Shown here: positions 8,209-34,605 of the stretch, piece after piece | Numbering within the stretch: position 1 is the stretch's first letter | Layout: the number at the start of each line of letters is the position of its first letter | DNA from: Escherichia coli | GTDB lineage: Bacteria > Pseudomonadota > Gammaproteobacteria > Enterobacterales > Enterobacteriaceae | Length of the DNA: 64,000 nt | Assembly (NCBI RefSeq): GCF_003334405.1 | Contig: NZ_QOWM01000002.1 | Strand: one strand, 5' to 3' | Notes under the pieces: model-generated | Told to the model about the DNA's origin: nothing | The model's input: the letters and a program-made list of their open reading frames with translations, nothing else | The model's database searches: none | Translations under genes and position numbers: made by a program

Positions 8209-8862
8209 ATGAAGAAAATTGGCGTAATTCTGAGCGGATGCGGCGTCTATGACGGTTCTGAAATTCATGAAGCGGTGTTGACGTTGTTAGCTATTTCACG
8301 CAGCGGTGCGCAGGCGGTCTGCTTTGCACCGGATAAGCAGCAGGTTGATGTTATCAACCATTTAACTGGCGAAGCGATGACGGAAACGCGCAATGTGCTG
8401 ATTGAAGCGGCACGAATAACGCGCGGTGAAATCCGTCCTCTGGCCCAGGCCGATGCCGCTGAACTGGATGCGTTGATTGTGCCGGGGGGGTTTGGCGCGG
8501 CGAAGAATTTAAGCAATTTTGCCAGTCTTGGTAGCGAATGCACCGTTGACCGTGAATTAAAGGCGCTGGCACAAGCGATGCATCAGGCCGGAAAACCGCT
8601 TGGTTTTATGTGTATTGCCCCGGCGATGCTGCCGAAAATTTTCGATTTCCCGCTGCGTTTGACCATCGGTACTGATATCGATACCGCAGAAGTGCTGGAA
8701 GAGATGGGCGCGGAGCATGTGCCGTGTCCTGTCGATGATATCGTGGTTGATGAAGACAATAAGATTGTCACCACCCCAGCATATATGCTGGCGCAGAACA
8801 TTGCAGAAGCGGCGAGCGGCATTGATAAGCTGGTTTCCCGCGTGCTGGTTCTGGCTGAATGA
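8209..8862 (+). CDS. elbB: glyoxalase III-like DJ-1/PfpI family protein ElbB
   Basis: Track ORF 8200..8862; ATG at 8209 gives 217 aa [21 protein letters not shown]... Confidence 0.93.
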
Positions 8863-9587
8863 GTAAAAGCCGCTTAACGGTGTTTAGTTTCGTTCGCCGT
8901 TTTCTTTTGCGGTTAATGGTTGTCCTCGCCGTTTTCTGGGGCGGGGGCATCGCGTTGTTTAGCGTTGCGCCTGTTCCCTTCTCAGCGGTAATGGTCGAGC
9001 GACAGGTCAGCGCCTGGCTGCATGGCAATTTTCGTTACGTGGCACATTCTGACTGGGTCAGTATGGATCAAATCTCGCCGTGGATGGGACTGGCGGTGAT
9101 TGCCGCAGAAGATCAGAAATTTCCTGAGCACTGGGGCTTTGATGTCGCTTCCATTGAGAAAGCCCTGGCGCACAACGAGCGCAATGAAAACCGTATTCGC
9201 GGTGCTTCAACGATTTCTCAACAGACAGCCAAAAATCTCTTTTTATGGGATGGGCGTAGCTGGGTTCGAAAAGGGCTGGAAGCCGGATTAACGCTGGGGA
9301 TAGAAACGGTCTGGAGCAAAAAGCGTATCCTGACGGTTTACCTGAATATCGCCGAATTTGGCGACGGTGTGTTTGGCGTCGAAGCTGCGGCACAACGTTA
9401 TTTCCACAAACCCGCGAGCAAACTTACCCGGTCGGAAGCTGCATTACTGGCAGCTGTATTACCTAATCCACTTCGTTTCAAAGTCTCCTCGCCATCGGGC
9501 TACGTGCGTAGCCGTCAGGCGTGGATTTTACGGCAGATGTATCAGTTAGGCGGTGAGCCGTTTATGCAACAACACCAGCTGGATTAA
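8859..9587 (+). CDS. mtgA: monofunctional biosynthetic peptidoglycan transglycosylase
   Basis: 242 aa ORF; start ATG overlaps elbB stop (ATGA); GT51 motifs ([19 protein letters not shown]). Confidence 0.95.
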
Positions 9588-10429: not shown

Positions 10430-10702
10430 TTAATCTTCATCAAAACCAGAATTAAAGAGGGCGATAACGGCGGCCAGTGCTTCCTCTTCCTGTGGACCGG
10501 TCGCTTCAACTTCAATCTGCCGTCCTTTGGCAGAATCCAACATCAGCAGCGCAATAACGCTGTTGGCTTCAGCCTCGGTGCCTTCGTCATTACGTAAGAG
10601 CACTTCAGCGTCAAAACCCTGCATTAATTCAAACAGCTTCATTGCAGGCCGGGCATGCATGCCCAGCTTGTTTGTGATTTCAACAGTTTGCTTGACGGTC
10701 AT
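10430..10702 (-). CDS. npr: nitrogen-related phosphocarrier protein NPr
   Basis: 90 aa HPr-like [23 protein letters not shown]...; overlaps rapZ stop. Confidence 0.95.
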
Positions 10703-13998: not shown

Positions 13999-14724
13999 TC
14001 AGAGTCTGAAGTCTTCCCCAAGGTATACACGCTTAACGTGTTCGTCTTGTAAGATTTCTGTAGGCGTGCCGTGGGCGATCAAATGCCCCTGACTGACGAT
14101 ATAAGCGCGTTCACAAACCGCCAGTGTTTCACGCACGTTGTGGTCAGTGATCAGCACGCCCAGGCCGCTGTCGCGCAGGTGCTCAATGATGCGTTTAATG
14201 TCGATAACCGAGATCGGGTCAACCCCGGCAAACGGTTCGTCGAGCAGAATAAATTTCGGATTCGCAGCCAGTGCGCGGGCAATTTCTACACGGCGACGTT
14301 CACCCCCGGAGAGTGACTGCCCCATGCTGTCACGCAGGTGCTCAATGTGAAACTCTTCCATCAGCTCGTTCGCGCGGTCTTCACGTTGTTCAGCAGACAA
14401 GTCGTCACGAATTTGCAGTACCGCCATCAGGTTATCGTAAACGCTGAGGCGACGGAAAATGGAGGCTTCCTGTGGCAGATAGCCGATACCGCGGCGCGCG
14501 CGTGCATGCAGAGGCAGCAGACTGATATCGTCATCATCAATAATGATGTTGCCCGCATCGCGCGGCACAATGCCTACAACCATGTAGAAAGTGGTGGTCT
14601 TACCGGCACCGTTTGGCCCCAGCAGACCGACAATTTCCCCGGAGTTGACGGTCAGGCTGACGTCTTCTACCACGCGACGGCCTTTATAGGCTTTTGCAAG
14701 GTTCTTTGCAGTTAATGTTGCCAT
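13999..14724 (-). CDS. lptB: LPS export ABC transporter ATP-binding protein LptB
   Basis: 241 aa ORF; Walker [13 protein letters not shown] signature LSGGERRR. Confidence 0.97.
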
Positions 14725-14730
14725 AACGAA

Positions 14731-15288
14731 TTAATTACCCTTCTTCTGTGCCGGGGTCTGGCCTTTGTTGTTTTTGTCCTGCAGCTGCGACGGCACCAGA
14801 ACGGTTGTTACGCGCTTGCCTTTGTCGCTGAAAGCCTGCATTTTCTGCTCTTTCACCAGGTAAGTGATCTTATCGCCCTTAATGTTGCTATCGACCTGCT
14901 GCAGATAAGCATTACCCGTCAGAACGACAAAATCTTTTGCCAGTTCGTAGTGCATCTGGGAAGCGTGACCTTCAACGGGTTTACCGTTGTCCTGCATCTG
15001 GTAGAACGTTGCCGGTTTACCGTAGCCGTCAATCACTTCTTTACCTTGTTCGCCGCCCGGACGGGTAACGACCACTTTGTCGGCATTAATTTTGATGGTG
15101 CCCTGGGTGACGATGACATTACCGGTAAAGGTAACCACGTTGCCTTGCATATCAAGAGATTGCTGGTCCGATTCAATGTGGATCGGCTGATCAGTGTCTC
15201 CGGTTACGGCAAATGCCGGAATGCTGGCGGCCAGAAGTGAGCTGGCAAGCACAAGATTAAGGCTGAGTTTGTTTGTTTTGAATTTCAT
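14731..15288 (-). CDS. lptA: periplasmic LPS transport protein LptA
   Basis: Track ORF 14731..15309; start at MKFKTNKLSLNLV (signal peptide) gives 185 aa. Confidence 0.93.
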   Translation of the reverse strand: MKFKTNKLSLNLVLASSLLAASIPAFAVTGDTDQPIHIESDQQSLDMQGNVVTFTGNVIVTQGTIKINADKVVVTRPGGEQGKEVIDGYGKPATFYQMQDNGKPVEGHASQMHYELAKDFVVLTGNAYLQQVDSNIKGDKITYLVKEQKMQAFSDKGKRVTTVLVPSQLQDKNNKGQTPAQKKGN

Positions 15289-15832
15289 AGGATGTTCTAA
15301 CCTTTTCAATCAGCTCGGCGTTCTTGCTGCGTAAGTTGCCGCGCATTTTCAGACCGCTGGAGTTAAATGTTGTTCCGTATAACGTGACGAGGTCTTCAGA
15401 GGTAACATCCTGCGTCACCAGATTGATCTGCGCGTTATCCGTCGTGATTCTGCGAAGTTGAGAGTCTGGCACAAGTGCGTTGACTTCAACGTGTCCATAT
15501 AAATAGAGCATCCGGTCATTGGTCAGCTTGGCTTTATCTGCTTTTACGGACCATGTCGGGATTTTATCCTTATCAAACGTGGTAAGTACCGGCTGCGTAA
15601 ACCACGAAACGGCCTGATCGGAATAATATTCAACGTGTTGAGCAATCAATCGATAGCTTAGTGCCCCTTCTGGGTTATAGACGAGCGTGTCCGTATGCTC
15701 GCTTTTATAGGTGGGATCATTGTTGTTGACGACCACCTGGGCGGTATCGTCTTTTTCGGCCATATTAATGCCGATCATCACCAGAACCGCCAGTGATAAC
15801 ACAATGATAACCCAACGTCTGGCTTTACTCAT
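15257..15832 (-). CDS. lptC: inner-membrane LPS transport protein LptC
   Basis: 191 aa ORF with N-terminal TM anchor; 3' end overlaps lptA start by 32 nt. Confidence 0.95.
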   Translation of the reverse strand: MSKARRWVIIVLSLAVLVMIGINMAEKDDTAQVVVNNNDPTYKSEHTDTLVYNPEGALSYRLIAQHVEYYSDQAVSWFTQPVLTTFDKDKIPTWSVKADKAKLTNDRMLYLYGHVEVNALVPDSQLRRITTDNAQINLVTQDVTSEDLVTLYGTTFNSSGLKMRGNLRSKNAELIEKVRTSYEIQNKQTQP

Positions 15833-16395
15833 ATCGATTGCCCTTTGGCTTCATCCAGTTTGCCCTGCGCCAGGAGTAATAAGTCGCAAACTTCGCGCAC
15901 TGCGCCACGACCGCCAGCAATGCGCGTCACGTAATCGGCGCGCGGGATCAACAGTGGATGCGCATCGGCCACGGCGACGCTTAAACCCACTTTTTCCATT
16001 ACCGGCCAGTCGATGAGATCATCGCCGACATAAGCCACATTTTCCGGGGCAATCGCCAGTTTTTCCAGCAGATCGCTAAAGGCGATCAGTTTGTTTGACT
16101 GCCCCTGATACAAGTGAGTGATCCCCAATGTGGCACAACGATCTTCTACCAGTTTAGCCTTTCGCCCGGTAATGATAGCGACTTCAATATCAGAGGTGAG
16201 CGCACAACGAATGCCATAACCGTCACGAACATTGAACGCTTTCAGCTCTTCGCCATTATTGCCCATATAAATCAGGCCATCTGACAGTACGCCATCGACA
16301 TCGAGGATCAGCAGACGAATGTTCTCTGCTTTTGCTATAACGTCGGCGCTGACAGGGCCGTAACAGGTCGCAAGCGACGCACCTGCTTTGCTCAT
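15829..16395 (-). CDS. kdsC: 3-deoxy-D-manno-octulosonate 8-phosphate phosphatase
   Basis: 188 aa HAD-family ORF (LLILDVDGVLSDG); overlaps lptC start. Confidence 0.95.
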   Translation of the reverse strand: MSKAGASLATCYGPVSADVIAKAENIRLLILDVDGVLSDGLIYMGNNGEELKAFNVRDGYGIRCALTSDIEVAIITGRKAKLVEDRCATLGITHLYQGQSNKLIAFSDLLEKLAIAPENVAYVGDDLIDWPVMEKVGLSVAVADAHPLLIPRADYVTRIAGGRGAVREVCDLLLLAQGKLDEAKGQSI

Positions 16396-16415
16396 TGTTG
16401 TTTATCCTTGAATCT

Positions 16416-17402
16416 TTACACTACGCCTGCACGCAGTAAATCATGCATATGTAACACACCGAGTAAATGGTCGCCATCGGCAACCATCACGGAGGTGATA
16501 TGGCGGGACTGCATTAAGTTCAGTGCCTCAACGGCCAGAATGCCAGGGCGCACACGTATTCCCCCCGGCGTCATCACATCGGCAATACTTAACTGACGAA
16601 CATCCACGCCCATATCGAAGACACGGCGTAAATCACCGTCGGTAAAGATGCCTTCAATCATCATATTGTCATCGCAAATGACAGTCATACCAAGATTTTT
16701 GCGGGTAACTTCCAGCAACGCGTCACGCAGACTGGCCGTTTTCTTAACATGCGGGATCTCATCGCCCGTATGCATAATATCGTTTACGCGCAGCAGAAGT
16801 TTACGACCCAGTGCGCCGCCTGGGTGTGAGAGCGCAAAATCTTCAGCAGTAAAGCCGCGTGCTTTTAACAGCGCGACAGCGAGGGCATCGCCCATAACCA
16901 GCGTGGCGGTGGTGCTGCTGGTCGGTGCCAGCCCTAACGGACAGGCTTCTTTCGCTACTTTAACACACAGATGCACATCTGCGGCGCGCGCCATGCTGCT
17001 CTCCGGGCGACCGGTGATGCAGATTAACGGTACGTGAAGACGCTTAAGCACTGGAATTAAGGCCGTGATTTCGCTGGATTCACCAGAGTTAGAGATAGCA
17101 ATCACCACATCCTGTGGGGTAACCATGCCTAAATCACCATGCGCGGCTTCACCAGGATGGACGAAAAATGAAGGTGTACCGGTGCTGGCAAACGTTGCCG
17201 CCATTTTTCGCCCAATATGCCCCGATTTTCCCATCCCCATGACGACAACTTTCCCTTTACACCAGAACATCTTTTCACAGGCAAGCGTGAAATTCTGATT
17301 GATGTATTGATCAAGCTCCGCCAGGCATTCACGTTCAATCGCCAGGACTTCTTTACCTGCTTGCTGAAAGTCAAAACCCGGTTGTAACTCTACGTGCGAC
17401 AT
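16416..17402 (-). CDS. kdsD: D-arabinose 5-phosphate isomerase
   Basis: Track ORF 16416..17423; start at MSHVELQPGFD gives 328 aa; SIS plus tandem CBS domains. Confidence 0.93.
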   Translation of the reverse strand: MSHVELQPGFDFQQAGKEVLAIERECLAELDQYINQNFTLACEKMFWCKGKVVVMGMGKSGHIGRKMAATFASTGTPSFFVHPGEAAHGDLGMVTPQDVVIAISNSGESSEITALIPVLKRLHVPLICITGRPESSMARAADVHLCVKVAKEACPLGLAPTSSTTATLVMGDALAVALLKARGFTAEDFALSHPGGALGRKLLLRVNDIMHTGDEIPHVKKTASLRDALLEVTRKNLGMTVICDDNMMIEGIFTDGDLRRVFDMGVDVRQLSIADVMTPGGIRVRPGILAVEALNLMQSRHITSVMVADGDHLLGVLHMHDLLRAGVV

Positions 17403-33756: not shown

Positions 33757-34605
33757 ATGAAACTCTTTGCCCAGGGTACTTCACTGGACCTTAGCCATCC
33801 TCACGTAATGGGGATCCTCAACGTCACGCCTGATTCCTTTTCGGATGGTGGCACGCATAACTCGCTGATAGATGCGGTGAAACATGCGAATCTGATGATC
33901 AACGCTGGCGCGACGATCATTGACGTTGGTGGCGAGTCCACGCGCCCAGGGGCGGCGGAAGTTAGCGTTGAAGAAGAGTTGCAACGTGTTATTCCTGTGG
34001 TTGAGGCAATTGCTCAACGCTTCGAAGTCTGGATCTCAGTCGATACATCCAAACCAGAAGTCATCCGTGAGTCAGCGAAAGTTGGCGCTCACATTATTAA
34101 TGATATCCGCTCCCTTTCCGAACCTGGCGCTCTGGAGGCGGCTGCAGAAACCGGTTTACCGGTTTGTCTGATGCATATGCAGGGAAATCCAAAAACCATG
34201 CAGGAAGCTCCGAAGTATGACGATGTCTTTGCAGAAGTGAATCGCTACTTTATTGAGCAAATAGCACGTTGCGAGCAGGCGGGTATCGCAAAAGAGAAAT
34301 TGTTGCTCGACCCCGGATTCGGTTTCGGTAAAAATCTCTCCCATAACTATTCATTACTGGCGCGCCTGGCTGAATTTCACCATTTCAACCTGCCGCTGTT
34401 GGTGGGTATGTCACGAAAATCGATGATTGGGCAGCTGCTGAACGTGGGGCCGTCCGAGCGCCTGAGCGGTAGTCTGGCCTGTGCGGTCATTGCCGCAATG
34501 CAAGGCGCGCACATCATTCGTGTTCATGACGTCAAAGAAACCGTAGAAGCGATGCGGGTGGTGGAAGCCACTCTGTCTGCAAAGGAAAACAAACGCTATG
34601 AGTAA
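33757..34605 (+). CDS. folP: dihydropteroate synthase
   Basis: Track ORF 33691..34605; ATG at 33757 gives 282 aa [12 protein letters not shown]... Confidence 0.94.

Follow-up and report, generated by a model that had tools for sequence, protein, structure and literature searches.

Does a gene that begins inside its neighbor depend on the translation of that neighbor? The question arises for lptC and lptA of Escherichia coli, which encode two envelope proteins of LPS export and share 32 nt in different reading frames. An initial annotation of the DNA analyzed here had reported this overlap, listed six further tight junctions, and taken all of them as signs of translational coupling. The window, that is, the whole stretch of DNA that was analyzed, comprises 64,000 nt of contig NZ_QOWM01000002.1 (RefSeq assembly GCF_003334405.1), and all positions given below refer to it. 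We have examined the coordinates of the overlap, the start of lptA, conservation of the arrangement in relatives, and the properties of the surrounding RNA and DNA, and we have weighed coupling against other accounts of how lptA is translated.

Anatomy of the overlap

Coordinates, reading frames, and RefSeq annotation all bear out the 32-nt out-of-frame overlap (Table 1). All CDSs annotated in the window run from a start codon to a terminal stop without an internal one. The gene order on the minus strand is yrbG-kdsD-kdsC-lptC-lptA-lptB-rpoN-hpf-ptsN-rapZ-npr, and the first six of these are the cistrons of the yrbG operon, in which lptC-lptA-lptB is the distal part (PMC4986956). Positions 14000 to 16500 match E. 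coli K-12 MG1655 at 100% identity, and this stretch was found in 5426/5426 complete E. coli genomes. The K-12 RefSeq coordinates can be transferred 1:1 to the window. One of 5427 matches to the lptB-kdsD stretch belongs to a record designated as a plasmid, which gives that genome two copies; this could reflect a misassigned replicon or a duplication.

Within the overlap, lptC codons from Y182 (in part) to P191 and the stop lie over lptA codons M1 to N11 (in part). The frames differ, since 32 modulo 3 is 2, and codon position 1 of lptA coincides with codon position 2 of lptC. By our own arithmetic, the chance that ten codons in a shifted frame are free of stops is ∼0.6, i.e., (61/64)^10, and an overlap of 32 nt in one genome is statistically unremarkable. 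The figure of 32 nt is already stated in the Lpt literature (PMC4986956): the published E. coli overlap of lptC and lptA (yrbK and yhbN) in the yrbG operon is the same locus as in the window. The yrbK-yhbN overlap and the internal promoters lptAp1 and lptAp2 go back to work of Sperandeo, Martorana, Polissi, Dehò, and colleagues, which that paper summarizes. The overlap is confirmed as real, conserved, and published before. Possibly unpublished are the nesting of the lptA ATG in Tyr182-Glu183, the survey of 80 species and of more distant relatives, and the block of constrained synonymous sites, all described below.

Table 1. Positions of the features discussed in the text (window coordinates)
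Feature	Position	Strand	Basis
lptC CDS, LPS export ABC transporter periplasmic protein, 191 aa	15257..15832	-	RefSeq
lptA CDS, periplasmic LPS bridge protein, 185 aa	14731..15288	-	RefSeq
lptC/lptA out-of-frame overlap, 32 nt	15257..15288	-	Sequence and RefSeq annotation
lptA start ATG, nested in lptC codons TAT-GAA (Tyr182-Glu183)	15286..15288	-	
lptC stop TAA, inside lptA codons Leu10-Asn11 (CTT AAT)	15257..15259	-	
LptA signal peptide, 27 codons	15208..15288	-	Translation, TIGR03002 start, n-region K/R variation
Weak Shine-Dalgarno-like AAGG, 12 nt upstream of lptA ATG	15301..15304	-	Duplex energy
Sole possible upstream lptA start, TTG	15307..15309	-	
In-frame TGA bounding the lptA ORF at its 5' end, 24 nt before the ATG	15310..15312	-	
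Block of suppressed synonymous variation, about -75 to +31 from lptA ATG	15257..15363	-	78-locus alignment
Sigma-E-like promoter candidate 1, GGAACAA-N16-TCTGA	15349..15376	-	Pattern scan
Conserved segment GGCAACTT...GAGCTGA, sigma-E-like promoter candidate 2 or part of a 5' leader	15310..15340	-	
kdsC/lptC overlap, ATGA, 4 nt	15829..15832	-	
rapZ/npr overlap, ATGA, 4 nt	10699..10702	-	
elbB/mtgA overlap, ATGA, 4 nt	8859..8862	+	
mlaC/mlaB overlap, TAATG, 1 nt	21412	+	
folP/glmM overlap, 8 nt	34598..34605	+	
rbfA/truB overlap, TAATG, 1 nt	45891	+	

Proteins encoded in the overlap

The identities of both products are secure. LptA scores 368.4 bits against the NCBIfam equivalog NF008143 (cutoff, 234), with residues 1 to 185 aligned, and 172.9 bits against TIGR03002 (cutoff, 71.7), whose match to residues 28 to 166 corresponds to the mature protein. 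LptC scores 364.1 bits against the equivalog NF008142 (cutoff, 230) and 176.7 bits against the broad family model TIGR04409 (cutoff, 38); the latter match covers residues 6 to 182, and the model ends at Tyr182. This residue lies at the LptC-LptA interface, where the C-terminal strand of LptC pairs with the N-terminal strand of LptA (PMC5575297). Beyond Tyr182, LptC carries a poorly conserved C-terminal tail of nine residues, and this tail is the only part of the protein that overlaps lptA.

On the other side, the overlap encodes only the basic n-region of the LptA signal peptide. By inspection, LptA has a Sec-type signal, with a basic n-region (MKFKTNK), a hydrophobic core (LSLNLVLASSLLAASIP), and an AFA cleavage motif followed by VTGD, and the mature-protein model begins at residue 28. 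Among 80 species, codons 2 to 11 of lptA vary by K/R swaps that preserve the basic character of the n-region (e.g., MKFKTNK, MKSRINK, and MKFRTNK). The overlapped ends of LptC and LptA both tolerate change, and the arrangement is therefore cheap to keep.

Start of lptA

The initial annotation was right that lptA initiates inside the last codons of lptC: an ATG is found at this position in all 80 species surveyed. Because an in-frame TGA closes the reading frame upstream, the start is limited to the TTG at 15307..15309, the annotated ATG, or a codon farther downstream. The longest lptA ORF accordingly spans 14731..15309, and the TGA-TTG upstream of lptA is kept in 78/80 species.

The overlap would vanish if the annotation were an artifact and lptA truly started downstream, e.g., at codon 13 (15250..15252), which is GTG in E. 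coli and lies directly beyond the lptC stop. This codon is of a start type in only 31/80 species, however, and in 20/80 species there is no in-frame start-type codon within 30 codons beyond the lptC stop. Initiation at codon 13 would also delete the basic n-region, which is itself conserved through K/R swaps. Further, Met1 of LptA is an invariant column in a MAFFT alignment of 11 sequences that includes ten cluster representatives (42 to 84% identity), and the NF008143 equivalog alignment begins at LptA residue 1. A downstream start that would remove the overlap, the finding that would have overturned the claim, was looked for, and no conserved one was found; we regard an annotation artifact as extremely improbable.

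Conservation of the overlap

Conservation was surveyed in the Enterobacteriaceae with one genome per species (80 species), in which LptA is 80 to 100% identical and LptC is down to 70% identical. The set of loci came from a single-protein LptA query whose reach was confined to this family, and overlap lengths were counted by walking the reading frame to the stop. The sequence TATGAA, with the ATG nested in Tyr182-Glu183, is present in 80/80 species. Of these species, 75 have an overlap of 32 nt, three one of 20 nt, and two one of 17 nt; in the last five, the lptC TAA comes 12 or 15 nt earlier (...YEIQK* or ...YEIQNK*). Because it is conserved across species, the overlap is no annotation accident.

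A small sample of more distant loci, consisting of nine cluster representatives with LptA identities of 34 to 52% and automatic gene calls, extends this picture; one distant locus (L084) lacks upstream DNA. Overlaps of 20, 20, 20, 29, 23, 14, and 29 nt occur in 7/9 of these relatives, whose LptA identities are 35 to 52%; another has a 14-nt gap between lptC and lptA instead, and the ninth has a changed gene order. All observed overlaps equal 2 modulo 3, i.e., the ATG always sits as NAT-GNN, and the length drifts between lineages in three-base steps from 14 to 32 nt. A change to a 1- or 4-nt overlap was seen in none of the sampled lineages. The ATGA overlap of kdsC and lptC also occurs in four distant relatives (L085, L086, L088, and L090). 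We conclude that the lptC/lptA arrangement is old and widespread but not fixed in length.

Two loci deserve separate mention. In a genome of 650 kb (L094; GCA_900016775.1, LN890288.1), presumably that of an endosymbiont, the order is lptC-lptB-lptA, with lptA isolated behind a gap of 190 nt, and the linkage of lptC and lptA is thus broken. Contig CACSKA010000008.1 (L074), labeled Chryseobacterium sp. 18061, carries an enterobacterial lptC-lptA with a 17-nt overlap and an LptA 81% identical to that of E. coli; the contig is nearly the same as one labeled Citrobacter sp. 18056 from the same project, and the assembly is probably mislabeled or contaminated.

Shine-Dalgarno sequence and RNA structure at the lptA start

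The predicted Shine-Dalgarno duplex of lptA is weak, at -3.4 kcal/mol (rank 51 of the 63 genes in the window). The predicted cost of opening the start region (-20 to +15) is 4.8 kcal/mol, against a median of 10.0 kcal/mol for the 63 genes, among which lptA has rank 4. When 105 or 221 nt spanning the start are folded, the predicted stability does not exceed that of shuffled sequences (z = -1.18 and -0.91, respectively). Neither folding nor opening energy thus predicts an occluding RNA structure around the lptA start.

Synonymous constraint and candidate promoters within lptC

In an alignment of 78 Enterobacteriaceae loci, third codon positions of lptC have an entropy of ∼1.3 bits over most of the gene, and variation is suppressed toward its 3' end. 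In five successive 15-nt bins leading up to the lptA ATG, entropy is 0.79, 0.76, 0.54, 0.19, and 0.58 bits. Third positions from -90 to -1 average 0.65 bits versus 1.28 bits for the rest of lptC (Mann-Whitney p = 2e-7, a value whose significance is overstated, as species were treated as independent). In the overlap itself, 16/32 columns are invariant among the 78 aligned loci, and third positions of lptA have 0.08 bits versus 1.12 bits in the rest of that gene. Such low variation is expected within the overlap, because no base there falls in the third codon position of both frames; coding does not explain the constraint upstream of the ATG. At the kdsC/lptC and lptA/lptB junctions, entropy dips only in the bin nearest the downstream start, about 15 to 25 nt from it. 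Among the conserved codons in the last ∼75 nt of lptC are a TTA for Leu that never varies and an AGA for Arg, a rare codon, that hardly does.

The extended constraint of ∼75 nt fits the presence of embedded promoters and a transcript leader. Two minor promoters upstream of lptA and within lptC have been published, lptAp1, which is sigma-E dependent, and lptAp2 (PMC4986956). Taking a reference consensus of the type GGAACTT-N16-TCNAA for sigma-E, we found two candidates. Candidate 1 matches well in E. coli but is not conserved beyond a few close relatives, both of its elements being intact in only 5/79 loci examined. Candidate 2 shows high conservation, with GGAACTT as the -35-like element in some genera, but combines this with an 18-nt spacer and a poorer -10 match. 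Judged from sequence, candidate 2 may correspond to lptAp1 or lptAp2. A scan of 14650..15900 for the sigma-70 consensus returned no promoter-like site, and a search of 14600..16000 against Rfam returned no family. A leaderless mini-ORF from the Met162 codon of lptC was considered and dropped: the expected transcription start site lies just after that ATG, and the adjoining promoter candidate 1 is not conserved.

Other junctions in the window

Coordinates of the six further overlaps agree with the sequence in every case, with lengths of 1, 4, or 8 nt (Table 1). All six pairs are codirectional operon neighbors and lie within the range of -8 to +6 nt. Termination-reinitiation has been demonstrated for overlaps of 1, 4, and 8 nt in other gene pairs of E. 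coli, and 707/2987 codirectional pairs in E. coli fall within -8 to +6 nt (PMC10666635). The six junctions share the exact layouts of canonical short-overlap coupling (ATGA at -4, TAATG or TGATG at -1, and -8; Huber et al. 2019, 2023). Coupling at these junctions may reasonably be assumed by analogy, as a generic reading of their layout.

Overlaps are common in the window, where 10/48 codirectional neighbor pairs overlap. Three of these had not been listed before: yrbN/deaD (8 nt, 50808..50815, plus strand), ubiT/yhbS (7 nt, 57910..57916, plus strand), and lpoA/yraN (43 nt, 63232..63274, minus strand), the last of which is longer than that of lptC/lptA. The yraN gene has a Shine-Dalgarno-like ACAGGAA motif 7 nt before its ATG. 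Convergent 3'-end overlaps occur at mtgA/yrbL (4 nt, 9584..9587), yhbS/yhbQ (14 nt, 58400..58413), and yhbP/yhbO (21 nt, 59176..59196).

Coupling or independent initiation

The claim of translational coupling is thus only partly supported. It is reasonable for the short overlaps, given their canonical layouts, but not for lptC/lptA, where an overlap of 32 nt is not itself indicative of coupling and is too long to serve as good evidence for it; as the main mechanism at this junction, coupling is probably wrong. We favor, with moderate confidence, the reading that this is a known operon overlap in which most translation of lptA begins independently and de novo. Beside the anatomy of the overlap, which is a matter of observation, we infer the following mechanism. 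Ribosomes would initiate de novo at the A-rich, unstructured lptA start, which has a weak and distant Shine-Dalgarno sequence, and they would do so on either kind of transcript, the long operon mRNA or the shorter lptAp1/lptAp2 mRNAs, which carry no lptC start. Termination-reinitiation coupled to lptC would be a minor contributor at most, and ribosomes on lptC would give at most modest help or hindrance to lptA.

Published genetics is consistent with this mechanism. When lptC is not transcribed, lptAB is still expressed from a promoter inside lptC (PMC8727689), and the dependence of lptA on lptC translation is therefore not absolute. Ectopic lptC complements an LptC-depletion strain in which lptAB is transcribed only from lptAp1/p2 (PMC4986956), so that LptA made without translation of lptC in cis appears to suffice for growth. 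Other points weigh against it. These promoters are described as minor or ancillary, and LptA and LptB are lower when only they are active (PMC4986956, PMC8727689); most LptA therefore comes from the polycistronic mRNA, where the lptA start is traversed by ribosomes translating lptC. A gene reliant on coupling might equally show a poor Shine-Dalgarno match at such a distance, and persistence of the overlap in most sampled gammaproteobacterial lineages could reflect selection for some linkage.

In the alternative closest to the original claim, ribosomes would end at the lptC TAA, stay on the mRNA, slide back ∼30 nt, and begin again at the lptA ATG, so that LptA output would follow that of LptC. 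The two genes are cotranscribed from yrbGp and their products are in direct contact within one complex, the Shine-Dalgarno sequence of lptA is poor, and the overlap is retained in the whole Enterobacteriaceae set and most distant relatives, all of which would suit reinitiation. At -32 nt, however, lptC/lptA lies outside the range of -8 to +6 nt in which efficient reinitiation has been measured or inferred on other pairs. In reporter studies, coupling falls faster with a longer overlap than with equivalent positive spacing, according to the review of Brown and Wade (2025; PMC12548453), which also cites Tian and Salis for coupling that is lost with distance beyond -4 nt and is absent at -25 nt. 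Nor does evolution treat the spacing as one would expect of reinitiation: it ranges over overlaps of 14 to 32 nt with one lineage at a gap of +14, and the five Enterobacteriaceae species that shortened the overlap did so by nonsense changes, none of which produced the efficient -1 or -4 layout. Production of LptA from transcripts that lack the lptC start also argues against it, and we consider reinitiation unlikely.

Long overlaps may instead act through RNA unfolding, in which ribosomes at the end of lptC would melt a structure that hides the lptA start and a fresh 30S subunit would bind. With 32 nt of overlap, a ribosome on lptC traverses the entire lptA start region, as happens in the coat/lysis overlap of phage MS2 (-50 nt), which is likewise long and out of frame; the same review gives MS2 as its example and deems unfolding likelier for large overlaps (PMC12548453). 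The predicted minimum-energy fold indeed pairs -55 to -35 with +33 to +50 around the lptA start. MS2 requires an inhibitory structure, whereas at lptA none is predicted or conserved: the folds are no stabler than shuffled ones, the cost of opening the start is among the lowest in the window, and the 3' arm of the stem (+33 to +50) varies between genera, with no compensating changes seen by eye. A stable structure sequestering the start is thus absent from the predictions, and unfolding seems to us highly unlikely. The opposite effect has about as little to recommend it, namely, that ribosomes elongating or terminating on lptC transiently block access to the lptA start of the operon mRNA and so damp LptA synthesis or set a ratio. 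Judged from coordinates, a footprint of ∼30 nt at the lptC stop would cover the lptA ATG and early codons, and the stress-responsive promoters of lptA give it a separate route of expression that avoids lptC. LptC is scarce in the cell, though, and too few ribosomes probably travel along lptC for occlusion to count. The supplements of INRI-seq and TRAINSPOTTER do not mention lptA or lptC, and that of one modeling preprint gives no Lpt copy numbers.

A broader proposal, which we find unlikely, is that an ancient gammaproteobacterial lptA start at the end of the LptC fold, together with the constrained block, would form a conserved regulatory module within lptC. Such a module would unite the lptA start region with a leader and internal promoters that respond to stress, would let the output of LptA and LptB vary independently of LptC, and might also hold a control element in addition to the known promoters, such as a protein or small-RNA site.

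Implications

The overlap has little significance beyond bookkeeping. It does carry a general lesson, that a long overlap is not evidence of coupling, unlike overlaps of 1 or 4 nt. In practice, the overlap constrains separate deletion or mutation of lptC and lptA, and the Lpt field uses plasmid-shuffling designs for this reason (PMC4986956). The 3' end of lptC is multipurpose DNA, in which coding sequence is combined with promoters and the region where lptA starts, and changes there that appear "silent" may therefore not be silent.
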